This document shows positions 786 to 53,108 of a stretch of DNA of 64,000 nucleotides, piece by piece. The stretch spans positions 167,114 to 231,113 of the forward strand of contig JBAYWK010000001.1 in the NCBI GenBank assembly GCA_041674105.1, read 5' to 3'. How positions within the stretch are numbered: the first letter of the stretch is position 1; every line of letters starts with the position of its first letter. This DNA is from Minisyncoccota bacterium (GTDB lineage: Bacteria > Patescibacteriota > Minisyncoccia > Phycocordibacterales > DATDWN01). The notes under the pieces are model-generated. The model saw nothing but the letters and a program-made list of their open reading frames with translations, made no database searches and was not told where the DNA came from. The position numbers and the translations under genes were made by a program.

Positions 786-2459
786 TTAGGATTCTAGATC
801 GACCACTCTTTTTAATTCACTAAGTGTTGTAGTGCCACTCAAAACTTTCAAAATACCATCTTGTTTTATACTTGGAATTCCTTGGTCTTCTGCTGCTTTT
901 CTTATCTCTCTCTCGCTAGGATTTTCTTTGACTGCTTGTTCTATTTTTTCATTCATTAAAATTGCTTCATAAATACCTATTCTTCCTTTGTATCCTGTAA
1001 AATTACATTTTTCACAACCATCACTTTCCCATTTTAAGTTTGCATCCAATCCTTCAAGGTAAGATCTGTCTTTGAAGGTACTCAAAATTGAATCAACAAT
1101 TTCTTTATCTTTCCCTTCTAAAAGGACTTGTTTTTTACAATCAGGACAAAGTTTTCTAATAAGTCTTTGGGCCATAGCCATATTTACAGCTGAAGAAATT
1201 ATTTTTGGGTTAACTCCGAGATCAATTAGTCTTGGAAAAGTTCCAGCGGCATTATTTGTGTGAAGAGTAGAAAAAACAAGGTGACCAGTCAAAGCAGAGT
1301 TTATGGCAATTTCAGCTGTTTCGGAGTCTCTAATTTCACCAACCATTATTACATCAGGGTCTTGTCTTAAGGCACTACGCAAACCTTCACTAAAACCATA
1401 ACCTTTTGAATCATCTGTTTGGGTTTGAACAATACCAGGCAAGTGGTACTCAATAGGATTTTCTATTGTAATTATTTTAACCTCTTTTGTATGAACTTTT
1501 TTTAGGAAAGCATAAAGAGTGGTAGTTTTTCCAGAACCGGTTGGTCCGGTATTTAAAATCATTCCATTTGGTTTGCTGATTTCTCTCATTATGAGAGTTA
1601 GTAATTTTGGGTGAATACCTAAGTTTTCTAATGTGACAGAGATTGAGTTTGGGTTTAGAACTCTCATTACTACAGACTCATTGTAAGCTCCGGGAATAGA
1701 AGAGACTCTGATTTCTATTTCTGCATCATTTATTTTTATACTAAATCTACCGTCCTGAGCGCCTTTTACATTTAATTTAAGATTTGAAATAAGTTTTATA
1801 CGAGACAAAAGAAGTCTAAAGGTATTTAGATCAAATTCTACAATGTCAGTTAGTATTCCATCTAGTCTGTACCTTAGTCTGACATAGTTTTCCTCTGGTT
1901 CTAGGTGGATATCTGAAGCTTTTATGGATATGGCTCCAGCTAAAATTATTTCAAGTATACGAGAAATCCTGTAGCTTTTTTTCATATGCAAAATTTCACC
2001 AATCAAGTTTTGAACATCAGCAATACTCTGAACTTTTGAAAGGAATTCAGTTATTTGTTCATTGGAAATGTCTAAAGCACCTGACTTCGTCTCAAAAGAA
2101 TAAGATAGGTCTTTGTATCTATCCCAAACTTTATTTAGACTTGTACGAGAAACCATATATATCTCAAGAGAGTAACCTTTTTCTTTTAGGTTGTTTAGAA
2201 TCTCTACTGTTTTTGTGTTATTGGGAGACAATACTCCAATACTTACAATTTTGTTTACTTCATTAAAGACCGCCAGTTGTCCTTCGCGAGCTTCTATTTC
2301 TGAAATGATACGAAGAGAGTCAATGTTTACAGGAGTGACGGTGAGATCTAGGTAGGATACTCCGTATTTACTAGACAAGATTTGAGCTAGATCCTCCTCC
2401 TCTTTTTTACGAAGATCTTCAAGTCTTCTGTTTTGTTTGTCTTCATCAAAAATAACCAT
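786..2459 (-). CDS. pilB: type II/IV secretion system ATPase, PilB/GspE family (type IV pilus assembly ATPase)
   Basis: Walker A GPTGSGKTTT. C-terminal tetracysteine CPDC...CEKC. Overall GspE/PilB architecture; 557 aa. Confidence 0.85.
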   Translation of the reverse strand: MVIFDEDKQNRRLEDLRKKEEEDLAQILSSKYGVSYLDLTVTPVNIDSLRIISEIEAREGQLAVFNEVNKIVSIGVLSPNNTKTVEILNNLKEKGYSLEIYMVSRTSLNKVWDRYKDLSYSFETKSGALDISNEQITEFLSKVQSIADVQNLIGEILHMKKSYRISRILEIILAGAISIKASDIHLEPEENYVRLRYRLDGILTDIVEFDLNTFRLLLSRIKLISNLKLNVKGAQDGRFSIKINDAEIEIRVSSIPGAYNESVVMRVLNPNSISVTLENLGIHPKLLTLIMREISKPNGMILNTGPTGSGKTTTLYAFLKKVHTKEVKIITIENPIEYHLPGIVQTQTDDSKGYGFSEGLRSALRQDPDVIMVGEIRDSETAEIAINSALTGHLVFSTLHTNNAAGTFPRLIDLGVNPKIISSAVNMAMAQRLIRKLCPDCKKQVLLEGKDKEIVDSILSTFKDRSYLEGLDANLKWESDGCEKCNFTGYKGRIGIYEAILMNEKIEQAVKENPSEREIRKAAEDQGIPSIKQDGILKVLSGTTTLSELKRVVDLES

Positions 2460-2541: not shown

Positions 2542-2571
2542 TTGACAAAATGACACCAAGTATGATATAAT
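2542..2571 (+). promoter_or_regulatory. consensus sigma70-type promoter TTGACA-N18-TATAAT upstream of the GC-rich secreted-protein gene
   Basis: TTGACA at 2542-2547 and TATAAT at 2566-2571. SD AGGAGGTG at 2578-2585, then ATG at 2590. Confidence 0.5.
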
Positions 2572-2589
2572 ATGGGTAGGAGGTGCAAG

Positions 2590-3375
2590 ATGCGCCAAGT
2601 TAATAGTTTTTTGATTTTGGTGCTCTTTTTGAGCACCACCATGATTTTTACAGTTTCGGCTCAGGAGAGCCGGGTTGGGGGCTGGAAGACTGTTCCAGCC
2701 AAGGCCGAGCCGTCTGAGCCGGCGGCAGAAGGTGCCGGGGAAACTCCTCAAGAGGGAGAAAAGTCAGAGGCTAAAAATGCTTCTGAGGCTGGAGTCTCCC
2801 CAGATCCTCTTTCCGAGCTGAAGGCTCATATCTCTGCCAGAGCTGAAGCTTTGGCAGAATTAGAAAAAAGAGAAAAAAATATCGATGAGCTTGAAAAATC
2901 TCTCACTCCTCTTGAGAGGAAAGCCTTCAGACAACTCAAAGAGGAAGCAGAAGCGAGGCGAAAAAGAGAGCTCAGAGACATGAGAGCTCGGATTGAGTCA
3001 AACCTTTCTGGGTGTGAAAAACCAGAAGAGGTCTGGGTCAATGATGACTTCGTTGCGGTTAGGACTTGGCGTGTAAACGCCAAGATTCTGATTCGCAACA
3101 CTAGTGGGGTTACCATTGATGAAATCGTCATCGGTGGGATACCAGCGGTCAAAAATCTGTGCCCCGGTGGGGCGCTTACCCTGACCAGGAAGCTCAATAC
3201 CTGGCAGGATGGTAATTCGCCGAGAATAATCTTCTCGGCCCAAGGAACTTTGGAGGATGGCACCGTCGCCACCTCCGAGAAACGGGTTTATCTTAGTGTT
3301 TGGCAGGCAGAGCAAGAGTTGTCCAAACAGGAGACTTGGGACATCTGTCTGCGCGGGAGCAGATGTCGTAACTAG
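2590..3375 (+). CDS. secreted hypothetical protein (signal peptide, E/A/P-rich linker, coiled coil, C-terminal beta-rich domain); gene is strikingly GC-rich relative to its flanks
   Basis: N-terminus MRQVNSFLILVLFLSTTMIFTVSAQE is a signal peptide. A coiled-coil segment AELEKREKNIDELEKSL...RKRELRDMRARIE follows. GC is visibly around 55% against AT-rich neighbours. Strong SD. Start moved from the track's 2572 to 2590. Confidence 0.6.
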   Translation: MRQVNSFLILVLFLSTTMIFTVSAQESRVGGWKTVPAKAEPSEPAAEGAGETPQEGEKSEAKNASEAGVSPDPLSELKAHISARAEALAELEKREKNIDELEKSLTPLERKAFRQLKEEAEARRKRELRDMRARIESNLSGCEKPEEVWVNDDFVAVRTWRVNAKILIRNTSGVTIDEIVIGGIPAVKNLCPGGALTLTRKLNTWQDGNSPRIIFSAQGTLEDGTVATSEKRVYLSVWQAEQELSKQETWDICLRGSRCRN

Positions 3376-3402
3376 TTTTTTTGTTCGCCCTCGCAAGGCA
3401 AG

Positions 3403-3436
3403 CCCCGATGCATTTTAGCATCGGGGCATTTTTTTG
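3403..3436 (+). terminator. rho-independent terminator (CCCCGATGC-loop-GCATCGGGG + T7)
   Basis: Perfect 9-bp stem followed by TTTTTTT. Confidence 0.6.
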
Positions 3437-3443
3437 TGTTAAA

Positions 3444-3887
3444 ATGCTTTTTATGAAATATAAAACAGGAAGCCTTGATGAAACTCAAAGTGTTGCATTG
3501 GATTTTATTTCTAAAATAAAAAAAACAGAAAATGATGCCACAGTTGTTGGTTTATATGGAGATCTTGGGGCAGGTAAAACTTCTTTTACTCAAGGTTTGG
3601 CCAAGTATTTAGGTATAAAAGAAAATGTTGTTAGCCCTACTTTTGTTATAGAAAAAATATATCATTTGGAAAATAATATTTTTAAACACCTTATACACAT
3701 AGATGCTTATAGAATAGAAAAGTCACAGGAGCTTTTAAGTTTAGGTTTTAAAAAAATAATATCTGACCCCGAAAATCTAATAGTCATTGAGTGGCCTGAA
3801 AGGATTTCTGACATAATGCCAGAACATATTCGTATAGATTTGAGACATATTTCTGAAAATAATAGAGAAATAGAAATCTCAAAATAG
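3444..3887 (+). CDS. tsaE: tRNA t6A37 threonylcarbamoyladenosine biosynthesis ATPase TsaE (YjeE)
   Basis: P-loop GDLGAGKTSFTQG. Downstream SPTF and HIDAYR motifs typical of TsaE. Start trimmed to the in-frame ATG at 3444. Confidence 0.7.
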   Translation: MLFMKYKTGSLDETQSVALDFISKIKKTENDATVVGLYGDLGAGKTSFTQGLAKYLGIKENVVSPTFVIEKIYHLENNIFKHLIHIDAYRIEKSQELLSLGFKKIISDPENLIVIEWPERISDIMPEHIRIDLRHISENNREIEISK

Positions 3888-3943
3888 GTGTTATAATGTA
3901 TATGTTTCCTGTAATTTTCTTAAAAATAGAGAAATTCCTTTTT

Positions 3944-6292
3944 ATGTCAAAAGAAAAAAATAAAAAAGTAGCCTTACTTGATGTTCACGCTATACTTCAC
4001 CGAGCTTATCACGCTTTACCTGACTTTGTTTCTAGTAAAGGTGAGCCAACAGGAGCTTTGTATGGTCTTTGCACATTTCTCATTAAGCTCATAAAAGATG
4101 TAAACCCAGATTATATTTTGGCTTGTTTTGATTTACCTGAACTTACAGAAAGACACGAGCTCTACAAAGAATACAAAGCTGGGAGAAAGAAAACTGACGA
4201 CGAGTTAATATTTCAACTTGAAAAATCCAAAGATGTTTTTACTGCTTTCAGTATCCCAATGTTTTCTTCCAAAGGTTTTGAAGCAGATGATATGCTTGGA
4301 ACAATTGTTGAACAATTGAAAGATAAAAATTACGACATAATAATTGCTTCTGGAGACATGGACACTATGCAACTTGTTTCTGGAAAAAAAGTTCAGGTTT
4401 ATACTTTGAAAAAAGGAATCAAAGATACAATTTTATACGATGAAGATGCTGTTTTTGAAAGATTTAGTTTTGACCCAAAATTTTTACCAGATTTCAAGGG
4501 TCTTAGAGGGGATCCATCGGACAATATAATCGGTATTGCTGGGATAGGAGAGAAAATAGCCACAGAACTTATTGTAAAATTTGGAAGTTTGGAAGATATC
4601 TATAAAAAATTAAAAAAGGACGAAGATAGTTTATTGAAAGCTGGTATCAAGAAAAGGGTGATTGAGCTTTTAAAAGATAACGAAGAGGAGGCTATGTTTT
4701 CTAAAATGCTAGCCACAATAAGGAGAGACGCTCCAATACATGTTTCTTTAAAAGAAAATGTTTGGAAAGAAGATGTTTCTATGAGCAAAGTTCATGATTT
4801 ATTTAGAGATTTAGAGTTTAGGACGCTGGGGGCAAAGTTTGCTGATTCTTTATCTATTCCTGTGGCTCAAAACACCGGTAAAGAAGAAAAACCAGAAGAT
4901 ATATACGAGGCAAGTCTTCTTTTGTGGGTAGTAGATTCAACTAAATCCAGTCCTAGTTTAGATGAAATTTTGTCTTTTACACACAGTCATACTTTGGGTG
5001 AAGCAAAAAAGGTTTTAGAAAAAATGATAAAAGACCAAAAACTTAGTTTTATTTTAGATGAGATAGAAAAACCTCTGATACCTATAATTAAAAAAATGAA
5101 AGAGGTTGGTATAAAAATAGACACAAAAAGACTAAAAGAATTGTCCAAAGAATATCATAAAAAATTAAACTCATTAGAAAAAGATATATGGAAAATAGCC
5201 GGAGAAGAATTTAATATAAATTCACCAAAACAGCTTGGAGAAATTTTGTTTGTTAAACTTGGCTTGAAAATAAAAAATCAAAAAAAGACTGCTGGAGGAG
5301 GTTTTTCTACTAAAGAATCTGAGCTGGAAAAATTAAAAAATGAATACAAAATCGCAAAATATATTTTGGAGTACAGAGAGTTGGCTAAGCTTTTAGGTAC
5401 TTATATAGACACTATTCCAACCCAAACAGATGAAAAAGACAGGCTTCATGCTGACTTTTTGCAAATGGGAGCTAGCACAGGGAGAATGGCTTCAGCAAAT
5501 CCAAATCTACAAAATATTCCAAATAAAACAGATCTTGGTAGGGAAATAAGAAAATCTTTTATAACAGAAAAAGGGTGGAAGCTTGTTTCTTTTGATTATT
5601 CTCAAATAGAGTTGCGTATTGCAGCTTTTCTTTCTGGTGATAAGAAACTAATAGAGATTTTTAATAATAAAGAAGATATCCATACTTCTGTAGCCAGTGA
5701 AGTTTTTGGTGTACCAAAAAATGAAGTAACAAAAGAAATGAGAGGGCACGCTAAAGTTATAAACTTTGGTGTTATGTATGGTATGGGTGTTTTAGCTTTG
5801 AAACAAAACCTCGGGACTTCTAAGGAGGAAGCTCAAGAATTTTTAGATGGTTATTTCAATAAATTTTCTGGCCTAGCAGAGTATTTGGAAAATGTTAAAA
5901 GAGAAACGGCTCAAAAAGGTTTTACTGAAACTTTCTTTGGTAGAAGAAGATATTTTCCAGACATTAGGTCCAAGCTTCCTTTTATGAGAGCTTCGGCCGA
6001 GAGAATGGCCATAAATGCTCCTATACAGGGCACAGAGGCTGATATTATAAAACTAGCTATGGTTAAGATAGAAGAGTTTTTAAAGACAAAAGGGCTGAGG
6101 GATGATGTTAAATTATTGCTTCAAGTCCATGATGAGCTTGTTTATGAAATAAAAGAAAACATAGTAGATTCTGTGGCTTTTGAAATAAAATCTATAATGG
6201 AAAGTGTTTTAGATTCTAAAAAAACAAGCGGGGTTATTTGTGTGGCCAACGCCTCTTTCGGAGATAATTGGGTAGAGATGAAAGAAATATGA
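3944..6292 (+). CDS. polA: DNA polymerase I (5'-3' exonuclease plus polymerase domains; 3'-5' exo region reduced)
   Basis: FEN-like N-terminus with GDPSDNIIGIAGIGEKIA. Pol A motifs DYSQIELRIAAFLSGD, RGHAKVINFGVMYGMG and QVHDELVYE. Start set to MSKEKNKK at 3944. Confidence 0.85.
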   Translation: MSKEKNKKVALLDVHAILHRAYHALPDFVSSKGEPTGALYGLCTFLIKLIKDVNPDYILACFDLPELTERHELYKEYKAGRKKTDDELIFQLEKSKDVFTAFSIPMFSSKGFEADDMLGTIVEQLKDKNYDIIIASGDMDTMQLVSGKKVQVYTLKKGIKDTILYDEDAVFERFSFDPKFLPDFKGLRGDPSDNIIGIAGIGEKIATELIVKFGSLEDIYKKLKKDEDSLLKAGIKKRVIELLKDNEEEAMFSKMLATIRRDAPIHVSLKENVWKEDVSMSKVHDLFRDLEFRTLGAKFADSLSIPVAQNTGKEEKPEDIYEASLLLWVVDSTKSSPSLDEILSFTHSHTLGEAKKVLEKMIKDQKLSFILDEIEKPLIPIIKKMKEVGIKIDTKRLKELSKEYHKKLNSLEKDIWKIAGEEFNINSPKQLGEILFVKLGLKIKNQKKTAGGGFSTKESELEKLKNEYKIAKYILEYRELAKLLGTYIDTIPTQTDEKDRLHADFLQMGASTGRMASANPNLQNIPNKTDLGREIRKSFITEKGWKLVSFDYSQIELRIAAFLSGDKKLIEIFNNKEDIHTSVASEVFGVPKNEVTKEMRGHAKVINFGVMYGMGVLALKQNLGTSKEEAQEFLDGYFNKFSGLAEYLENVKRETAQKGFTETFFGRRRYFPDIRSKLPFMRASAERMAINAPIQGTEADIIKLAMVKIEEFLKTKGLRDDVKLLLQVHDELVYEIKENIVDSVAFEIKSIMESVLDSKKTSGVICVANASFGDNWVEMKEI

Positions 6293-12702: not shown

Positions 12703-12936
12703 ATGGGATTTGGAGAAAGTTTTAAGAATTTTTTTGGGGGAGAAGCTAAGAAGGAAGTGACACAGGAAGAATCTTTGCGAGCAGAGCTGGTCACATTAGA
12801 GGAAAAAGTAGAGCAAGCTAAAAATGATCCTGAATATGGAGAAACACAAGATATGGTTCATATACAAAGAAGAATAAATGAAATAAAACAAGATTTAGGA
12901 TTGGAAGATGACCAGGCAAAAGAAGAAGTCGCATAA
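12703..12936 (+). CDS. small acidic hypothetical protein (77 aa)
   Basis: ORF with its own terminator at 12941-12966 (ACTACC-ttag-GGTAGT + T7). Confidence 0.4.
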   Translation: MGFGESFKNFFGGEAKKEVTQEESLRAELVTLEEKVEQAKNDPEYGETQDMVHIQRRINEIKQDLGLEDDQAKEEVA

Positions 12937-12965
12937 ATAAAAAACTACCTTAGGGTAGTTTTTTT

Positions 12966-13316
12966 GGTAGGAATCTCCCTCAAAAAATCATTTGCCGTCG
13001 CAAGTGATTTTTCTGGGCACCGGTTTGTCGACAAGCTCTGCCGATTTTGTAGACCTCAAATCTCTTCGATTCTGAAAGGGTGCTTTGGCAATGAAAATAC
13101 ATTAGATCCCTAACGAAAAATAGGCTAACGATTCTCAGTAGGAATCTTCCGCGAGTAAAATTTTGCCGTCGCAAAATTTTCTCGTGTCCGCAGCTCGCGA
13201 CCCATCGTGTTCGATGGGTACCCCGCTCCGCTTTTCGATTCCTAACGAAAAGCAATAACATTGCTTTTCTCCGGGAGCACAATATAAAAAACCCAGAGAT
13301 GGGTTTTTTTATATTG
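12966..13316 (-). repeat. tandem pair of GC-rich tRNA-trailer miniature elements downstream of tRNA-Arg(GCG). Each is bounded by a direct copy of the tRNA 3' end GGTAGGAATC: A1 at 12976-13147 and A2 at 13148-13316
   Basis: GGTAGGAATC occurs at 12966-12975, GTAGGAATC at 13139-13147, and again within the tRNA at 13324-13333. A1 carries the 65-nt conserved core at 12976-13043, shared with the elements at 22116 and 26050. A2 carries a degenerate copy. The track's 127-aa ORF at 12980..13363 is an artefact of this region. Confidence 0.6.
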
Positions 13317-16715: not shown

Positions 16716-16872
16716 TTAAATAAGTATAATTTTTTTGTGGTATTCATTGTACAAAATTCGAATGTATTTTGAAAGTAACCCTGATGCCGACTAAACGACT
16801 TAGGATGCGGATTAATTCCGACAAAAAGTATTTTTGGTTTTTTGTATCTATAAAGGATTATGTGTGTCTTTG

Positions 16873-17214
16873 CTATTTCTCCAAAATGGTTTTTAGAGTC
16901 AATGCTTCGTTGTGCTCCATATCTTTCGCACCGTACACGAGCGTGACCATTCCTTTCTTGCCCAGGCGTTTGAGTTCCGCGAGCAGGTCGGTTTTTGACT
17001 TGAGTTCGCGCCTGTATTTCACTTGGAACGTCGTCCATCGCTTCGGATCGTGACCAAACCACTTCCGCAACTCGGTGCTCGGGCCGATATCTTTAAGCCA
17101 CATATCTATCGCTGCTTTTTGTTTCGTAAGGCCACGTGGCCAAAGCCTATCTACTAAAATTCTTCTGCCGTCGTTTTTTGTAGGCTTCTCGTATACGCGT
17201 TTAATTCTTATCAT
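16873..17214 (-). CDS. DUF488 family protein (YeaO-like)
   Basis: MIRIKRVYE...RILVDRLWPRG...WFGHDPKRW. GC-rich, around 50%. Start trimmed to avoid overlap with the next gene. Confidence 0.6.
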   Translation of the reverse strand: MIRIKRVYEKPTKNDGRRILVDRLWPRGLTKQKAAIDMWLKDIGPSTELRKWFGHDPKRWTTFQVKYRRELKSKTDLLAELKRLGKKGMVTLVYGAKDMEHNEALTLKTILEK

Positions 17215-17221
17215 AGTGTAA

Positions 17222-17935
17222 TTAATATCCGCTAAATTCTTCAGTCCTGATATTGTCTTCATTGGCGCCGGCTTTCATCAGCATCTCGCGCATTGCTTTG
17301 ACCATGCCGACAGGCCCGGACAAGTAATAGATCGGGATGGCGATGTCCAGTATGTACCGCTTTAACATGGCGTCGTCGATATACCCACTCTCTCCACTCC
17401 ATTCGGTTTCGGGAGTATCGGTATAGACGGGGATAAATATGAAATTCTGATTTTCTTTTGCAAAGCCTACCATGTCTGCCGTAAAGGCCGCGTCAGCTGG
17501 GGTTTTGTTAGAATACAAAAGTGTTATCTTGTGTGGCAGGTGGTCGTGCGATGCCTGCGCGATAATGCTTCGTACTGGCGTGATGCCGATGCCGCCAATC
17601 AGGAAGACGGCTGGCGTGGTCTCGTTCTTATGAAGTTTGAAATCTCCATACGGAGCGTCAAATTTTACTTCCGTACCAATGGGAAGATTTTTAAGTACAC
17701 GCTTAAAGGCGGTATCCCGCATACGCGTTGCTGTCACGATATTACTTTCGTATGGTGCGTGAGCGAGAGAAAAACCTCTTGTATTTCCTTCTTCATCGGT
17801 CTCGGGAGGATTGATCAAAGTAATATCGCAAAATTGTCCGGCGACAAATTCGAATCCGGCTGGCTTTTCCCAATAGAAAGCCATTGTACCGTTTGCAATT
17901 TCTTCTTTTTTTGTGAGCTTTATATTGTATATCAT
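17222..17935 (-). CDS. ferredoxin-NADP+ reductase-like FAD/NAD(P)-binding oxidoreductase
   Basis: RGFSLA FAD motif and GGIGITP NAD motif. GC-rich. Confidence 0.6.
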   Translation of the reverse strand: MIYNIKLTKKEEIANGTMAFYWEKPAGFEFVAGQFCDITLINPPETDEEGNTRGFSLAHAPYESNIVTATRMRDTAFKRVLKNLPIGTEVKFDAPYGDFKLHKNETTPAVFLIGGIGITPVRSIIAQASHDHLPHKITLLYSNKTPADAAFTADMVGFAKENQNFIFIPVYTDTPETEWSGESGYIDDAMLKRYILDIAIPIYYLSGPVGMVKAMREMLMKAGANEDNIRTEEFSGY

Positions 17936-17989
17936 GTTATTTTTATGGTTATTTTTTAAACTTCGTTTGAGAATATATAATTTGTCCAT

Positions 17990-18198
17990 TTCTTACTTTT
18001 AAAAAAGACGTGAGTCGATATCTTGTGGCAGAAGTGCAGTTCATGATGTCGTGCACAAGCCAACCCTTTGCGGAAATTTGAATTCCGATTTGTTGCGGTG
18101 ACGATTGCTGGAACTTTGAACCGATAATACGGCTTAGTTACAGCAATGTTGATAAAATTATACGAAAATTAAGGCGAATATACCAAGAAAAGCCGGAC
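17990..18198 (-). repeat. copy 1 of a roughly 200-bp paralogous leader/intergenic element (5' of the oxidoreductase gene, begins at the NUDIX stop)
   Basis: About 70% identical to 18796-19006. Shared blocks TTCTGAGCAAA, GATATC, TTTTATCAACA and ATCGTCACCGC. Confidence 0.5.
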
Positions 18199-18768
18199 TT
18201 ATTCGATATTCCTACTTTTGCTCAGAAGATTTACTAATTTCCTCAACCTCCTCGTCTCAGAAAGCTTGGATCCTGCAAGCCGGGTAGAGGCACCAGTGGA
18301 GGCTATAAGAGTGGCACGCTTGAGCTCCGTCAGTTGGAGTTTCGAAAGATAATCAGTGATCATCTTTCGCGCGGGCGGATTAAAACCACTATATGCTTCT
18401 CCGGCGATGTAGTCTTTTATCGGAACCCAACGCCATTCAGAAAATTTCTCCGGTTCCATGAGCTTGGCTTCTTGATCAGTTGTGCAGTAGAACATCAACA
18501 CCACATCTCCTTCTTTCGCTCCAGGAACTTCGCCAATAAAATCTAAAATTTTCAAATCTGTAATATTAACCTCTTCAGCCGTCTCTCGGCGAAGAGTTTG
18601 CTCGATGGTCTCTCCCAAATCTGATCTACCTCCTGGAATTGTCCAAACGGAAATTTTCTTCCACTTGTCGGGCGTATAGTGGCGATGTCCGGTTAACACT
18701 TTGCCGTCTTTTACAATGACCGCAATCGGACAGGTGATTTCATCTCCTTGTTTTGTAAGTTGTTCGTT
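18199..18768 (-). CDS. NUDIX hydrolase
   Basis: Nudix box GGRSDLGETIEQTLRRETAEEVNI. Start set to MNEQ; the track's start is GTG. Confidence 0.75.
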   Translation of the reverse strand, partial: NEQLTKQGDEITCPIAVIVKDGKVLTGHRHYTPDKWKKISVWTIPGGRSDLGETIEQTLRRETAEEVNITDLKILDFIGEVPGAKEGDVVLMFYCTTDQEAKLMEPEKFSEWRWVPIKDYIAGEAYSGFNPPARKMITDYLSKLQLTELKRATLIASTGASTRLAGSKLSETRRLRKLVNLLSKSRNIE

Positions 18769-18795
18769 CATAGTTCGAATCCCATCAGGGTTCAC

Positions 18796-19006
18796 TCATT
18801 TTATCACTTTTCGGTTTTGAAATGTAGCGCAAAATAAGGGAATTTTAATTGCCACTTTTCAAAACTACTGGCGGTGACGATGTCCCGAAGTTAGAACCAA
18901 TGAGAACGCTTCATTTCAGCCGTGTTGATAAAATTGTACGTGATTTACGGCAAATTTACAGAGAAAACCCAACCTGCTTTGATATCCCCGGATTTGCTCA
19001 GAAAAT
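18796..19006 (-). repeat. copy 2 of the roughly 200-bp paralogous leader element (5' of NUDIX, begins at the deacetylase stop)
   Basis: See copy 1. Confidence 0.5.
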
Positions 19007-19726
19007 CTATTGAGGACGAGCTTTCTGTAACAACTCGGACACTGTCACAAACGTATATCCTTCCTGCTTAAGCGCATCAATTATAAGCGGTAAAGCTTGG
19101 CGTTGTTCGCCACAGGTATCACACAGGGGGTGTAAAAGAATAATGGAACCAGGCCTTGTGTTCTCAATTGCATTGCTCACGAAGAATTCGGTGGTAGTGC
19201 CATAAGTGTCAGGCTCAACATCCCAAATAACCGTTGCTATATCGTGCTTATCCAGATACCACGGTAAGCCCAAGAGTTTCTTACTGTTTGGAGGACGGAA
19301 TGTAATCTTTCCCTCATATCCAGCCTGTCGAATAAGGCGATTTGTGGTTTGGATTTCATTATTTATGAAATCTTGCGATTTGAAGATTATTCTTTGGTGA
19401 GAATATGAATGGTTTCCAAGCTCGTTTCCGTTGGCAACTATCTTTTTTGTTAGATCGGGATATTTTTCGATTTGCTGACCAATTGCGTAAAACGTCGCGG
19501 TTACTTGTTTCTGTGCGAGCACATCAAGCACTTCATTCGTATAAGCAGTCGGCGCATCATCAAAGGTGAGTGCGACCACTTTTTCATCTGTGTCTACTCT
19601 TGTTATCAACACTCCAAAGACCTGATACGTCCTGGAATTCATGAGTTTGTAAGTGCCATACAAGACGACTATCACCGCAAGCAGTATCGCAATTACAATC
19701 AGAAATAGTTTAAAAAATTTATGCAT
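19007..19726 (-). CDS. polysaccharide deacetylase (NodB homology domain), N-terminal TM anchor
   Basis: VALTFDDAPTAYT...ATFYAIGQQ...GNHSYSHQ. Confidence 0.75.
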   Translation of the reverse strand: MHKFFKLFLIVIAILLAVIVVLYGTYKLMNSRTYQVFGVLITRVDTDEKVVALTFDDAPTAYTNEVLDVLAQKQVTATFYAIGQQIEKYPDLTKKIVANGNELGNHSYSHQRIIFKSQDFINNEIQTTNRLIRQAGYEGKITFRPPNSKKLLGLPWYLDKHDIATVIWDVEPDTYGTTTEFFVSNAIENTRPGSIILLHPLCDTCGEQRQALPLIIDALKQEGYTFVTVSELLQKARPQ

Positions 19727-19744
19727 AATTCTAATTTGCCCATT

Positions 19745-19834
19745 TGGCGGAGGAGGTGAGATTCGAACTCACGGTCCCCGTAAAGAGACTCCTGTTTTCA
19801 AGACAGGTGCAATCGGCCACTCTGCCACTCCTCC
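19745..19834 (-). tRNA. tRNA-Ser(TGA) copy 1, CCA encoded
   Basis: Class II tRNA. Anticodon loop CTTGAAA, long variable arm, T-arm GTGAG-TTCGAAT-CTCAC. Confidence 0.85.
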
Positions 19835-19868
19835 ATATTTTATATTATCTTTCCACTGTTTCTACTGT
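19747..19868 (-). repeat. 122-bp direct repeat copy 1 (tRNA-Ser plus 34 bp of its 5' flank), identical to 22277-22398
   Basis: Visible identity through ...ccatattttatattatctttccactgtttctactgt. Confidence 0.8.
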
Positions 19869-19872
19869 TATA

Positions 19873-20454
19873 TTATTTTCTCACAATAAAATGAAAAACA
19901 TGCCAGTGCTTCATATCTCCCTTTGCTGTTGGTCTGTCTGCTTCTTCTTCCTTAAAATCAATAATCTCTAAACCATTCAAAAACTTTTCTGCCTGTTCAC
20001 GAGTCTGAAAATTCATCTTGTGATCTGGAACATTCCACTCATCTTTTTCACCGAAAAATTGTCCGGTAAGTATTCCACCGGTTTTAAGTGAAGAAGTGAT
20101 TGATTTGAAAACTCTTTCAAAAGTGTTTTGTGGATTGAATGGTAAAGAGTATTGTGCATTTATGAGATCGTATTTGTCTTCAACAAAATCAAAATCCTCA
20201 AAAGTACTGATAACATATGAGACAATTTCTGGTGGAAAGTTTTGAATGATGTCTTGAGCAAGAGGTTTACTGTCTACAGCATTAATATGTTTAAAACCTT
20301 TTGAAACGAGGAACTTTACGTCATTCAATGCACCAGAGCCTAAATCCAATGCTTCATTTTTATCATTCACAAAATCCACCGCCTTAACGAGTAGAGGTCG
20401 TGGCTTTATGTCCTTTGTCCGTTCAAAGTATTCTTTCCAAGTATTTTCTGACAT
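19873..20454 (-). CDS. class I SAM-dependent methyltransferase
   Basis: Motif I LDLGSGALND. 193 aa. Confidence 0.6.
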   Translation of the reverse strand: MSENTWKEYFERTKDIKPRPLLVKAVDFVNDKNEALDLGSGALNDVKFLVSKGFKHINAVDSKPLAQDIIQNFPPEIVSYVISTFEDFDFVEDKYDLINAQYSLPFNPQNTFERVFKSITSSLKTGGILTGQFFGEKDEWNVPDHKMNFQTREQAEKFLNGLEIIDFKEEEADRPTAKGDMKHWHVFHFIVRK

Positions 20455-20543
20455 AGTTGCATATTAGCACATAGTTTTTGATAAAGAAAAAGTCCCACCG
20501 TTCGCATTTCGCTACTAGGTGGAACTTGATTCACGGCCGATCC

Positions 20544-21794
20544 TTACGGATGAGTAATGAAAGTGTACTGGCGTTCGGGACTGAGGAGAGCAACTACTTC
20601 CTCCATCTGCTCGAACGTAACCTTTTGCAGATTGTCCCAGACCTCCTGCATGGGAATGATTCGATGATGGTTAACCAATTCACCCGCACATTCTCCACAC
20701 AGACCTGCTCCAGAATGATCGATCATGAGACACTGCTTGATGCAGGACTCGAGCTTGCGATCAAAGAGATCACGCCGTGATGGAACCATTGAGATGCACT
20801 TGCGTACAAGCTCGTTGATATATGGCGTAGCTTCTGGACTGATCTGCCCCTCGATCCGATACTCGCAGACATCCTGTAAATCCTCGAAGTCGATACCGAT
20901 GCTGTATGCGAGTCCACGTTTTTCGCGAACTTCGTCAAACAGAATCTTTCCGAGAACATTGTTGAACACCCTGCGTGCTTGTCGAGGAAAATCTAACGGA
21001 AACGCCCACGTTGCTTTGTAGCCCGTCTGATCAACCTTGAAGTTGACGTGGTCGGACATCTTCACTGTGTGAGACTGTTCCATTGGGATTGCAAATTGAT
21101 TGAACATTGAAGGAATAGGATTTCTCCGTCCCTCCTTTTGCTTTCCAAACGGACTCCGTTCAAGCTCGGCGATTACTTCTTCGGTCGTGAGACCTCCGAG
21201 AATTACCAAGCTCATGTTGGCTGGCGTGTAGTGTTGGTCGTAGAAACCTTGCAGGTCAGCTTCCGTTGCCGAAAGAAAACCCTCAGGACGACCAAGTGGA
21301 CGATTGTACGTTTCGAGACGATGCCCTTTGAAAAGCGATCGTCGTATTGTCATATCCCATTCCAATTTTTCAAGGAATGGGTACCGCTGATTGAACTCGC
21401 GGTAGATGACTTTACGTTCTCTTTCAATATCCTTTTCGAGACGAGCTTCGAGAAGCATCGAACCGAAAATTGAAATTACTTCTCGAAATGTCGACAAATC
21501 TGCTGGAACAGCAAACTTGTATCGAGTTGAGAGGTAGTTGGTCCTACCATACTCCGCTCGACCACCAACGCTCTCGATAAACTGCTTCACCGAGTCGTGT
21601 GTACGATTCGGAATGTTTTGACTGACACAATGTTCAACGAAGTGAGCGACACCAGGCATCTTGACCTGATCTTCGCGTGCTCCGCTGTGAACGACGATCT
21701 CCATTCTAATCCAAGGACGATCCTGGGACATCGAATGAATTTCAAGACCGTTCGGAAGAGCACATTTGTTGAAACCTACATACGGATCGTACAT
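20544..21794 (-). CDS. M16-family zinc peptidase (pitrilysin-like)
   Basis: HFVEH zinc motif plus downstream ERERKVIYREF glutamates. GC around 48%, clearly above the genome background. Confidence 0.75.
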   Translation of the reverse strand: MYDPYVGFNKCALPNGLEIHSMSQDRPWIRMEIVVHSGAREDQVKMPGVAHFVEHCVSQNIPNRTHDSVKQFIESVGGRAEYGRTNYLSTRYKFAVPADLSTFREVISIFGSMLLEARLEKDIERERKVIYREFNQRYPFLEKLEWDMTIRRSLFKGHRLETYNRPLGRPEGFLSATEADLQGFYDQHYTPANMSLVILGGLTTEEVIAELERSPFGKQKEGRRNPIPSMFNQFAIPMEQSHTVKMSDHVNFKVDQTGYKATWAFPLDFPRQARRVFNNVLGKILFDEVREKRGLAYSIGIDFEDLQDVCEYRIEGQISPEATPYINELVRKCISMVPSRRDLFDRKLESCIKQCLMIDHSGAGLCGECAGELVNHHRIIPMQEVWDNLQKVTFEQMEEVVALLSPERQYTFITHP

Positions 21795-22095
21795 TTCTTC
21801 TCCTCTTTTTCGTGGTGAATTTGATGGTTACAAAGAATTTAGTCCATGCCTATTTTAGCACACTTAATGCCACTATGTCAATAGCACCCTTGTTTTTCCA
21901 TAAAGAGCGAGTACTGAAACTTGAACAGTTTTCTCTCTATGCTTCGGATTACGTTTCTTTATTCACTCGCATATATCAACTACTCGAAAAGTATCGGATG
22001 ACTGATGAGCTGACTGGAATAGGAATAGGTGTCAGGTACCGTTTTTTTACTTCAATCTCAAAAAATTAAAAACACCCCGAAGGGTGTCTTTAATT

Positions 22096-22277
22096 TGCGG
22101 AGGAGGTGAGAGTTTCTCCCTCGAAAAATCACTTGCCGTCGCAAGTGGTTTTTCTGGGCACCGGTTTGTCGACAAGCCCTGCTGGGCTCGTAGACCGACA
22201 AACCGTTCGAATCTCACCCGAAAAACTTTCAGTTTTTCTTCCACCCAAACAAAAAACACCTAACGGTGTTCTTGTTT
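22096..22277 (-). repeat. tRNA-trailer miniature element B downstream of tRNA-Ser copy 2, bounded by a 15-nt direct copy of the tRNA 3' end (gcggaggaggtgaga at 22096-22110)
   Basis: Conserved core tccctcgaaaaatcacttgccgtcgcaagtggtttttctgggcaccggtttgtcgacaagc at 22116-22176. Inverted copy of the Ser T-arm ccgttcgaatctcacc at 22201-22216. Confidence 0.6.
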
Positions 22278-22364
22278 GCGGAGGAGGTGAGATTCGAACT
22301 CACGGTCCCCGTAAAGAGACTCCTGTTTTCAAGACAGGTGCAATCGGCCACTCTGCCACTCCTC
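22278..22364 (-). tRNA. tRNA-Ser(TGA) copy 2 (identical body, CCA not encoded)
   Basis: Identical to copy 1. Confidence 0.85.
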
Positions 22365-22375
22365 CATATTTTATA

Positions 22376-22591
22376 TTATCTTTCCACTGTTTCTACTGTA
22401 TATTTTTTTGCCACAAAATATATATAAATAATATCCAATATGGCGAAAGTATTTATAATCAATAAAATAATGAACCATTTTTTCTGGGAAAGTTGCGCTG
22501 ATTTCCATAAAGCAAGCCCTTTCCAAGGTAATGTCCATACTAATACTGCTGCAATTAGCCAAGGATTTATTGTTAACATTTCTGTTGACAT
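22376..22591 (-). CDS. small two-helix membrane protein (about 72 aa)
   Basis: MSTEMLTINPWLIAAVLVWTLPWKGLALWK... Confidence 0.35.
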   Translation of the reverse strand: MSTEMLTINPWLIAAVLVWTLPWKGLALWKSAQLSQKKWFIILLIINTFAILDIIYIYFVAKKYTVETVER

Positions 22592-51719: not shown

Positions 51720-51839
51720 CCTTGACATAATCTCTGTTTGGTAGTATAATATATCTTAACTTTTTTATTTTTTAAATTGTGGTATATTCACTTGGTATAG
51801 TCATGTGTCTATAAAAACGGCTTAAAATAAAGGTATTAT

Positions 51840-53108
51840 ATGAATTATAACCAAAAAGTGCTTAAAAATGGCTTAACAGTCATCACATCTCCTATGAAAG
51901 ATAGTCCATCTGTGACTGTTTTAGTTATGGTATCTGCTGGCTCTAAATATGAAGATAGAAGTATAAATGGAATATCTCATTTTTTGGAACACATGTGTTT
52001 TAAAGGAACACATAAGAGGCCTACAGCTTTTCATATTTCTAGAGAATTAGATAGCATAGGATCTCAAAATAACGCTTTCACTGCTCAAGAATTTACAGGA
52101 TATTATGCTAAAGCTCATCCACAATATTTAGAATCTATTATGGATGTGGTTTCCGATATATATTTAAATCCCACTTTTGATCCTGCTGAGATAGAAAGAG
52201 AAAGAGGAGTAATAATAGAGGAAATGAATATGTACGAAGATATGCCTCATAGATTGGTCCAAGAAGTTTTTATGGAAACTTTGTATAAAGATCAACCTGC
52301 TGGTTACTGGGTGATTGGAACAAAAGAAAATATTCTAAAAATTACTAGGGAAGATTTTTTAGCTTATAGAAAAAAACATTATGTGGCAGAGGGTACGACT
52401 GTTTTTGTTTCTGGAGATATAGACGAAGAAAAAGTTCTTGCTCTAGTTGAAAATTATTTTAGTAGTATTCCAGTATCTCCAAAAGAGGCACCTAAAAAAG
52501 TTGTGGAGAGTCAAACAAAACCAGAACTAAACATAAGAGATAAAGATACAGATCAAACTCATCTTGTCTTAGGAGTTAAAACATTTGGTGGGGATGATAA
52601 GAGAAATAGTACCTTAAGTGTACTAAACTCTATTTTGGGTGGAGGTATGAGCTCTAGACTTTTTCAAAAACTCAGAGAGGAAATGGGAGTAGGGTATTAT
52701 GTTAGATCTGAAACAGACGAATATATTGATCATGGATATTTAGCTATATCTACTGGTGTGGATACAAGTCGAGTTGTAGAAGTGGTAAAAGCAATCATTT
52801 TTGAATTAAAAAGATTTGTAGTCGAACCTGTTTTAGAGGCGGAGCTCAAGAAAGCTAAAGACTATCTGGTTGGTAGTACTTTTTTAGGACTTGAATCTTC
52901 TGATTCTGTTGCAGAGTACTATGCTATGCAAAAAATTGTTTCATCTAAACTTGTAACCCCTTCCGAATTGGCTTCAGAGATTCAGTCTGTAACAGCCGAG
53001 GAGGTTATGGAATTGGCAAAAGAGATAATGATTGACTCTCGTTTAAATATGGCTATTGTAGGAAATATAAAAAATAGAGAAGAGATTGAAGCAGAACTGC
53101 ATTTTTAG
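51840..53108 (+). CDS. M16-family zinc peptidase
   Basis: HFLEHMCFKGT plus EIERERGVIIEE. Confidence 0.75.
   Translation: MNYNQKVLKNGLTVITSPMKDSPSVTVLVMVSAGSKYEDRSINGISHFLEHMCFKGTHKRPTAFHISRELDSIGSQNNAFTAQEFTGYYAKAHPQYLESIMDVVSDIYLNPTFDPAEIERERGVIIEEMNMYEDMPHRLVQEVFMETLYKDQPAGYWVIGTKENILKITREDFLAYRKKHYVAEGTTVFVSGDIDEEKVLALVENYFSSIPVSPKEAPKKVVESQTKPELNIRDKDTDQTHLVLGVKTFGGDDKRNSTLSVLNSILGGGMSSRLFQKLREEMGVGYYVRSETDEYIDHGYLAISTGVDTSRVVEVVKAIIFELKRFVVEPVLEAELKKAKDYLVGSTFLGLESSDSVAEYYAMQKIVSSKLVTPSELASEIQSVTAEEVMELAKEIMIDSRLNMAIVGNIKNREEIEAELHF

Follow-up and report, generated by a model that had tools for sequence, protein, structure and literature searches.

Why should one gene depart so sharply in base composition from everything around it? 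The question is raised by a 64,000-nt stretch of the genome of a Minisyncoccota bacterium (GenBank assembly GCA_041674105.1, contig JBAYWK010000001.1, positions 167,114 to 231,113 of the forward strand; hereafter the window, with positions counted from its first letter), in which a single gene, here called X, is far richer in guanine plus cytosine (GC) than its neighbors. The host group is that of Zambryskibacteria-like Paceibacteria (Parcubacteria, Candidate Phyla Radiation, CPR). An initial annotation proposed that X is a recently acquired, probably highly expressed surface or secreted factor wedged between pilB and tsaE. The flanking genes are indeed those of the PilB ATPase and TsaE, and the gene order at the locus is pilB (divergent), X, tsaE, polA. 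Our analysis leads to another explanation, to which we give a probability of roughly 0.55: X encodes an envelope protein and is strongly transcribed, into an mRNA that has been selected for heavy folding, and the high GC of the gene is the footprint of that selection. The genes in question are as follows.

2590 to 3375, plus strand: coding sequence of protein X, from ATG at 2590 to TAG at 3373-3375, 786 nt, 261 amino acids.
786 to 2459, minus strand: pilB, encoding a T2SSE/PilB ATPase, flanking X.
3453 to 3887, plus strand: tsaE, encoding TsaE, flanking X.

The coding sequence of X has a GC content of 50.3%, compared with 34.3% for the whole window, and reaches 53% in its richest 300-nt sub-window. 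The initial annotation had estimated ~55%, an overstatement of about 5 points; that the gene lies visibly above its surroundings was borne out by the calculation (50.3% GC, and 0.50 at third codon positions, GC3), far beyond chance. Among 786-nt segments of the window, GC averaged 34.4% with a standard deviation of 4.0%, and the maximum of 51.3%, about four standard deviations above the mean, fell at X, making it the strongest compositional outlier of the window. By codon position the values are 0.55, 0.45, and 0.50, and the GC3 of 0.50 compares with a background of ~0.23 and with 0.18-0.25 in pilB, tsaE, polA, and holA. The amino-acid composition of the protein is likewise GC-shifted, being rich in Ala, Arg, and Glu, and the boundary of the GC-rich region tracks the X transcript rather than a wider tract. 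Translational selection on a very highly expressed gene, i.e., codon adaptation, might be invoked for such a pattern, and the strong, conserved promoter and Shine-Dalgarno (SD) sequence described below would suit it. However, the genes for ribosomal proteins, NusG, SSB, and EF-P in the window have a GC3 of only 0.24-0.29, and the codon usage of X is unlike that of these ribosomal-protein genes and of bulk genes alike. Since third-position G (0.28 vs. 0.13) and C (0.22 vs. 0.09) are both raised, so that G-ending and C-ending codons are increased together, unlike in ribosomal-protein genes, the pattern is not one of tRNA adaptation, and we consider codon adaptation hardly credible.

X is a protein-coding gene. 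The possibility of a non-coding RNA with a chance open reading frame (ORF) was ruled out by a ratio of nonsynonymous to synonymous substitution rates (dN/dS) of 0.1-0.2 (0.10-0.19 among close homologs), by indels that are all in frame, and by a confident, coevolution-based fold of the protein. Antisense ORFs exist across X, as is expected in GC-rich DNA, and folding favors the sense strand.

What sets X apart besides its composition is the predicted structure of its mRNA (all RNA structures reported here are thermodynamic predictions from sequence). The X transcript (2578-3436) has a predicted folding energy of -374.5 kcal/mol vs. -283.4 ± 7.1 kcal/mol for dinucleotide shuffles (z = -12.9). 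When synonymous codons were permuted among positions, keeping both protein and codon usage, the minimum free energy of the coding region was -330.4 kcal/mol, compared with -256.3 ± 7.5 kcal/mol for the shuffles (z = -9.9), a gain of ~70 kcal/mol. Shuffling within 60-nt blocks gave z = -12.5 for X and values near 0 for pilB and polA. The excess is the largest among 71 ORFs of the window, the other strongly folding ORFs being artefacts over tRNAs, an unannotated region at ~12.9-13.3 kb, and one island gene. It is spread along the whole coding region, with local peaks in the first ~150 nt and over the region encoding the C-terminal domain.

The same property was found well beyond this genome, in a wider survey of 80 species-representative loci of related Paceibacteria, in which the position between pilB and tsaE is referred to as the slot. 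Among 58 slot genes, the median z was -4.65, with 84% below -2, and the median for pilB of the same loci was -0.28; expressed per 100 nt, excess energy was -4.76 kcal/mol for slot genes vs. -0.23 kcal/mol for pilB. The slot gene folded more in excess than pilB in 40 of 42 loci (Wilcoxon P = 3e-12), and the sense strand folded better than the antisense strand in 55 of 59 genes (median difference -24.6 kcal/mol). The GC enrichment is itself tied to the predicted stems, as GC3 at paired third positions was 0.47-0.58 vs. ~0.33 at unpaired ones in four of five close homologs, with no such difference in pilB or polA, and GC3 excess correlated with excess folding across genes (rho = -0.34, P = 0.012). 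One slot gene lacks GC richness (locus L076, 3117-3896, minus strand; GC3 0.20 in a genome of GC 0.30); its promoter matches consensus at 9 of 12 positions and its folding z is -1.9. It represents a natural loss-of-feature case, in line with the link between GC and folding.

The age of X bears directly on the initial proposal of recent acquisition, i.e., horizontal transfer from a GC-richer donor with a composition not yet adapted to the host. An atypical composition and a compact, self-contained gene with its own promoter and terminator are what such an event would leave. The search for close homologs returned only four among 5.8 billion clustered proteins (56-73% amino-acid identity), and all four show the same pilB-X-tsaE-polA arrangement, with X at 45-50% GC within a background of 31-35%. 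The identity of X ranks like that of pilB, whose identity to the window is 95.5% in L002, 92% in L003, 83% in L001, and 74% in L004 (partial pilB only). In the wider survey, an X-family profile matched an ORF in the slot in ~40 of 80 loci; in another ~20 the slot holds a shorter lipoprotein, the mature part of which hhalign identifies as a homolog of the X C-terminal domain (probability 90%, E = 1.5e-6). Taken together, the family fills the slot in ~60 of 80 species loci, while pilB and tsaE are directly adjacent in ~12. On these comparisons the X family has two architectures, a long X-type and a short lipoprotein. The short form (110-180 amino acids, with a lipobox, GC-rich, with a consensus promoter) occurs in distant relatives at ~3300-3930 on the minus strand of each locus (L012, L016, L017, L027, L031, L032, L034, L052, L053, L060, L065, L066, and others). 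Neither the rest of the window nor the flanks of the surveyed loci yielded a paralog of X. A metagenome scan for further close homologs returned only the known contig, so that the covariation support discussed below was not strengthened by it; in a word-indexed search with the alignment of the family, coiled-coil words dominated the results, and little was gained.

Around X we found only chance-level short repeats and no tRNA or mobility genes, its neighbors being pilB, tsaE, and polA. This contrasts with a real island candidate at 16.9-22.4 kb of the window, which carries a duplicated tRNA-Ser and is described further below. The initial annotation had named conservation in all relatives as contrary to its proposal, and X lies at this site in each of the close relatives that were found, members of its family occupy the slot throughout the class, and the same GC excess recurs where pilB identity has fallen to 65-77%. 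Moreover, there is no net drift from GC to AT although synonymous sites are saturated. Judged by its distribution, X is an old, vertically inherited, single-copy gene and not a recent import, and we give next to no weight to recent acquisition.

A gene that is old could still be compositionally foreign if the class ancestor had acquired it from a very GC-rich donor and its amelioration were incomplete. The amino-acid composition, GC-shifted as well (GC 0.55 and 0.45 at first and second codon positions; Ala, Arg, Glu), is consistent with such an origin, as are longer profile matches (P0017, P0039, P0043) that perhaps come from other phyla. However, slot genes in nearly all loci have a GC of 0.48-0.64 and a GC3 that holds at 0.5-0.84 in dozens of lineages; slot-gene GC3 exceeds that of pilB in the same locus by a median of 0.25, and by more than 0.10 in 47 of 54 loci. 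Within the close clade, X synonymous sites are saturated (dS from 0.9 to above 2), yet polarized synonymous changes are balanced, with 63 GC-to-AT vs. 70 AT-to-GC changes (by parsimony, with small counts and overlapping comparisons). X is therefore at compositional equilibrium. Passive decay of a foreign composition would also leave the excess folding, its sense-strand specificity, and the concentration of GC3 in stems unexplained. The conservation in the slot, the balanced changes, and the lack of mobility signs together exclude a recent transfer and make slow amelioration unlikely; we regard the ancient acquisition as very doubtful.

The rates of change suggest a further explanation, namely GC-biased gene conversion at a recombination hotspot, where a fast-evolving surface-protein gene is exchanged between strains. 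Between the window and L002, X outpaces its neighbors at synonymous sites (proportion of synonymous differences 0.54 vs. 0.27-0.37) and at nonsynonymous sites (dN 0.18 vs. 0.02-0.08). On the window lineage, AT-to-GC changes per site in X run at about threefold the pilB rate (0.31 vs. 0.10), with similar GC-to-AT rates (0.15 vs. 0.21), and biased conversion would raise third-position G and C together, as is seen. What gene conversion does not predict is the ~70 kcal/mol of extra folding that depends on codon order, nor the strand specificity, the enrichment of GC3 in stems, or the covarying hairpin at the start codon; and the GC boundary follows the transcript and not a wider recombination tract. 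We consider gene conversion quite unlikely as the source of the composition.

Selection on the mRNA, the explanation that we favor, is consistent with the signals that frame the gene.

2542 to 2571, plus strand: sigma-70 promoter, -35 TTGACA at 2542-2547, 18-nt spacer with TG, -10 TATAAT at 2566-2571, matching consensus at 12 of 12 positions.
2578 to 2585, plus strand: SD sequence AGGAGGTG, 4 nt before the ATG, beginning 6 nt past the -10 hexamer.
2582 to 2596, plus strand: predicted start hairpin, 5' arm GGUGCA (overlapping the last Gs of the SD), loop AGA, 3' arm UGCGCC, -8.3 kcal/mol.
3383 to 3399, plus strand: 3' untranslated region (UTR) box GUUCG-CCCUCGCAAGGC, invariant in five homologs.
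3402 to 3435, plus strand: intrinsic terminator, a 10-bp stem at 3402-3427 with 8 G-C pairs, followed by a T-run.

The perfect promoter, the strong SD, and the gene's own terminator had all been recognized in the initial annotation and stand as described there. Only two perfect promoter sites occur in the 64 kb, compared with 0.11 expected, and that of X is kept base for base in the four close homologs. Across orthologous loci, slot-gene promoters match consensus at 12 of 12 positions in 26 of 55 cases and at 11 or more in 42 of 55; on the pilB side of the same spacers, none of 54 reaches 11. The sequence from SD to ATG, AGGAGGTGCAAGATG, is conserved in close homologs, and the start of the SD follows the -10 hexamer by 5-9 nt in ~30 of 55 slot genes. 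Since the SD starts only a few nucleotides after the -10, the RNA should begin with it, and X probably has a 5' UTR of ~12 nt with the SD at its extreme end, the transcription start being placed from the -10. The other perfect promoter of the window (TTGACA-N17-TATAAT, 51722-51750, plus strand) lies upstream of an ORF at 51840-53108.

The hairpin that encloses the SD and AUG covaries across the class. Its 3' arm contains the U and G of the X AUG, and a comparable hairpin (≤ -5 kcal/mol, predicted) was found in 35 of 51 slot genes, with a median start-region energy of -6.0 kcal/mol vs. -0.7 kcal/mol for 69 other starts in the window (P = 3e-10). The arms vary by lineage while pairing is kept (GUGCA/UGCAC, GCUCA/UGAGC, GACCA/UGGUC, GGCGC/GCGCC, GUGCC/GGCAC), and AUG-anchored helices of at least 5 bp occur in 35% of slot genes, compared with 14 ± 4% when arms were permuted. 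At the other end of the transcript, the terminator (consensus helix 24) is conserved in homologs with compensatory changes. The 3'-UTR box may form a long-range closing helix with coding positions 2692-2710; this pairing is weakly supported, as one of the 13 pairs in the corresponding consensus helices 4-6 has a both-side change that keeps pairing. A replicate clade carries a UUCG-loop hairpin where the close homologs have the 3'-UTR box. In locus L002, ~150 nt extra relative to the window lie between the X terminator and tsaE (5547-5768), and hold a 33-nt palindrome, CTAAGATGTCAAGGGGCACCCTTGACATCTTAG.

Conservation of the structure within the coding region was assessed in two ways. A consensus fold of five close homologs comprised 223 pairs, with 89% of cells paired vs. 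39-48% in slid controls, and 35 pairs were changed on both sides, compared with 17.3 ± 3.0 in shuffles (none of 500 reached 35) and 6-16 in slid controls. As this fold was derived from the same sequences on which it is scored, its pairing and covariation figures are inflated. The stricter test took the fold of the window sequence alone and checked it in the other homologs: 65-75% of its pairs were able to form, vs. 40-47% in slid controls, and of pairs changed on both sides 59 of 110 (54%) still paired, vs. 118 of 361 (33%) in controls. The best-supported internal element is the following.

3051 to 3100, plus strand: conserved mRNA helix 16 of the consensus, core CUUGGCG-UGUAAA-CGCCAAG at 3065-3084.

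Helix 16 has 21 pairs, six of them with pairing-preserving changes on both sides, and 91% of its cells are paired over five homologs. A second clade (L044, L047, L049, L057) yielded its own consensus fold of 160 pairs, and the deep family shares the state of being folded without an alignable RNA architecture. Core helices such as 3051-3100 are kept, while much of the structure turns over and the amount of folding stays. Such a pattern is better accounted for by selection on the folded state as such than by selection on a single, exact architecture.

These data bear on the view that X is a bifunctional RNA, an mRNA that is also a structured RNA (a scaffold, a sponge, or an exported or protein-binding RNA) with its folding selected for the second role. 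Values of z from -10 to -13 are those of structured RNAs and not of mRNAs, the helix core, 3'-UTR box, and start hairpin are conserved, and the folding is specific to the sense strand. However, X had no match in Rfam 15 at the gathering score (only sub-threshold chance matches, at E up to 1), much structure turns over even among close relatives, and the folding runs along the entire coding region without a discrete domain or an architecture that can be aligned in the deep family. A second role for the RNA is, in our estimate, unlikely.

Several observations weigh against selection for mRNA folding as the cause of the high GC. Where only one side of a predicted pair has changed, pairing is lost at the control frequency (34-36%), much of the structure turns over, and synonymous sites in the consensus helices were not significantly more conserved (28% vs. 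15%, P = 0.28). The dS of X is above, not below, that of its neighbors. GC3 at unpaired sites, ~0.33, still exceeds the background of ~0.25, and folding may therefore not explain the entire GC excess; GC richness also occurs without excess folding in the slot genes of L050, L073, and L079. Finally, a hairpin that covers the SD and start codon is expected to reduce translation and not to raise it.

We nevertheless favor mRNA folding as the selected property, and the mechanism that it suggests is as follows. X would be strongly transcribed from its consensus promoter, which is conserved across the class, into an RNA with the SD at or beside its 5' end, closed over together with the AUG by the start hairpin. 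The coding region, folded well beyond what the protein sequence requires, and the hairpins at the 3' end would complete a compact message whose heavy folding probably serves to shield it from RNases and thereby prolong its functional life. Gating of translation may be a further or alternative role of the start hairpin. Since stable stems need G and C, in a genome of 34% GC such selection would leave the high GC of X as its footprint, much as in rRNA and tRNA genes. The likeliest selected trait is mRNA longevity; it is a step that we infer, as are high expression and the envelope role of the protein.

Among the closest parallels is E. coli lpp, encoding Braun's lipoprotein, the mRNA of which was reportedly described in 1980 as extensively base-paired. 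Like X, lpp is a small, monocistronic gene with strong constitutive signals, encoding an envelope protein with a helical coiled part. Its mRNA is unusually stable, with a half-life of ~10 min, and Lpp is present at ~750,000 copies per cell (PMC5924895). The two differ in that lpp has no sequence or fold relationship to X (no Pfam or NCBIfam match among 42 family members) and is not a compositional outlier in its own genome, and X is three times longer, has a beta-sandwich head, and is without a lipobox; moreover, the abundance and stability of X mRNA are presumed here from its sequence. In other bacteria, the 5' hairpin of E. coli ompA, the Bacillus aprE leader, and the cryIIIA STAB-SD block decay that depends on the 5' end. 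The X hairpin, a few nucleotides from the predicted 5' end, and the strong SD at that end resemble these elements, although in X the hairpin takes in part of the SD and the AUG, and its start is placed from the -10. A short predicted hairpin pairing SD nucleotides with the start codon likewise recalls RNA thermometers and other SD-AUG-sequestering hairpins, but that of X sits in a gene otherwise built, it would seem, for maximal output.

With regard to composition, GC-rich structured RNA genes are known to stand out in AT-rich genomes, which is the basis of searches of GC-rich intergenic regions (PMC6429828). X is similar in lying ~16 GC points above a low-GC genome, coincident with strong predicted RNA structure; the principle has been applied to intergenic non-coding RNAs, however, and X is a full-length mRNA for a protein under purifying selection. 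Horizontally acquired islands share with X a composition atypical for the host genome, but X has a position conserved across the class, lacks mobility signatures, and is compositionally stationary.

The protein itself has the layout given in the initial annotation, i.e., a signal peptide, an E/A/P-rich linker, a coiled coil, and a Cys-containing C-terminal domain.

2590 to 2661, plus strand: Sec-type signal peptide, amino acids 1-24, MRQVNSFLILVLFLSTTMIFTVSA followed by QE, as read from the sequence; predicted helix at 2-24, conserved in homologs.
2662 to 2805, plus strand: E/A/P-rich linker, amino acids 25-72, probably disordered (predicted local distance difference test score, pLDDT, ~50), where the alignment varies most and has the most indels.
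2806 to 2997, plus strand: antiparallel helical hairpin, amino acids 73-136, AlphaFold2 helices at 73-104 and 107-136 (pLDDT 91-98).
2998 to 3372, plus strand: C-terminal beta-sandwich domain, amino acids 137-261 (pLDDT 94-98), the sandwich at ~140-255, with four Cys and the motif NLCPGG.

An AlphaFold2 model computed with 42 family sequences reached a pLDDT of 86, and above 94 from residue 73, compared with 50 when five sequences only were used; an exhaustive profile search with X had supplied 41 family representatives. Among close homologs, identity over the last 125 residues is 70-89%. Two Cys, C142 and C191, do not vary in the family and are likely to form a disulfide with each other. X has no Cys within its signal peptide or directly behind it and hence no lipobox at the N-terminus, while distant members of the family carry lipoboxes, and since C142 aligns with the lipobox Cys of the short slot lipoproteins, LSGC at 139-142 looks like a relic lipobox. 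On the basis of the model, we read X as an envelope protein whose small beta-sandwich head is held out on a helical-hairpin stalk behind a flexible linker; its ancestors would have been lipid-anchored, with the lipobox lost in this clade. The earlier description of X as a probably highly expressed surface or secreted factor is thus consistent with the Sec signal, the lipoboxes of relatives, and the conserved promoter, its expression level being the part that is presumed. Pfam, NCBIfam, and PDB-sequence searches with X and 41 relatives gave no relative, only coiled-coil noise. When X was examined as a type IV pilin or pseudopilin, no class III signal peptide (the signal is an ordinary Sec type) and no pilin Pfam match were found, and a link to the pilus is suggested solely by the conserved adjacency to pilB.

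If folding is what has been selected, the locus carries a caution for genome scans, in which a sharp, single-gene GC island is routinely taken as horizontal transfer; at X this signal is old, and RNA-level selection most likely maintains it. It would also serve as a natural experiment on the extent to which coding composition yields to selection on mRNA structure, with 15-20 GC points kept over class-level divergence, and point to a post-transcriptional strategy in uncultured CPR bacteria that combines a 5'-terminal SD, a start-codon hairpin, a hyper-folded coding region, and 3' hairpins. An uncharacterized family of envelope proteins of these episymbionts, probably abundant and encoded beside the pilus ATPase gene, is singled out at the same time. 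A bolder proposition, which we hold as a long shot, is that a class of CPR bacteria keeps one coding transcript as folded as a structural RNA, possibly as a bifunctional RNA. Were it true, the message might be stored in long-lived form and freed when the start hairpin opens on host contact, or serve as a scaffold or an exported RNA, and it would represent a kind of gene not described so far, recognizable genome-wide as a GC island that nonetheless codes.

Some features of the window outside X deserve mention. The longest ORF call for tsaE runs from a TTG at 3381, inside the X terminator, to 3887 (plus strand); translation from the conserved start of TsaE, at ATG 3453, gives a protein of 144 amino acids, matching relatives. 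The island candidate spans 16870-22400 at a GC of 0.42-0.49 and contains tRNA-Ser(tga) twice, within a 125-nt direct repeat whose copies (19744-19868 and 22275-22399) are 99% identical. Between the copies, on the minus strand, lie genes for a methyltransferase (19873-20454) and an M16-peptidase-like protein (20544-21794); to their left are genes for DUF488, FNR-like reductase, NUDIX, and polysaccharide deacetylase proteins, and the island also has a 139-nt repeat (18095-18233 and 18871-19009, 72% identical). The M16-peptidase-like gene, with a GC of 0.48, shows excess folding of its own (z of about -6 to -7, ~-44 kcal per 780 nt against synonymous-codon shuffles) and may be a second example of X-type folding. 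An unannotated, GC-richer stretch beside a tRNA-Arg (12900-13315, minus strand; z = -7.1), with terminator-like hairpins at its bounds and no Rfam match, is a candidate structured RNA.

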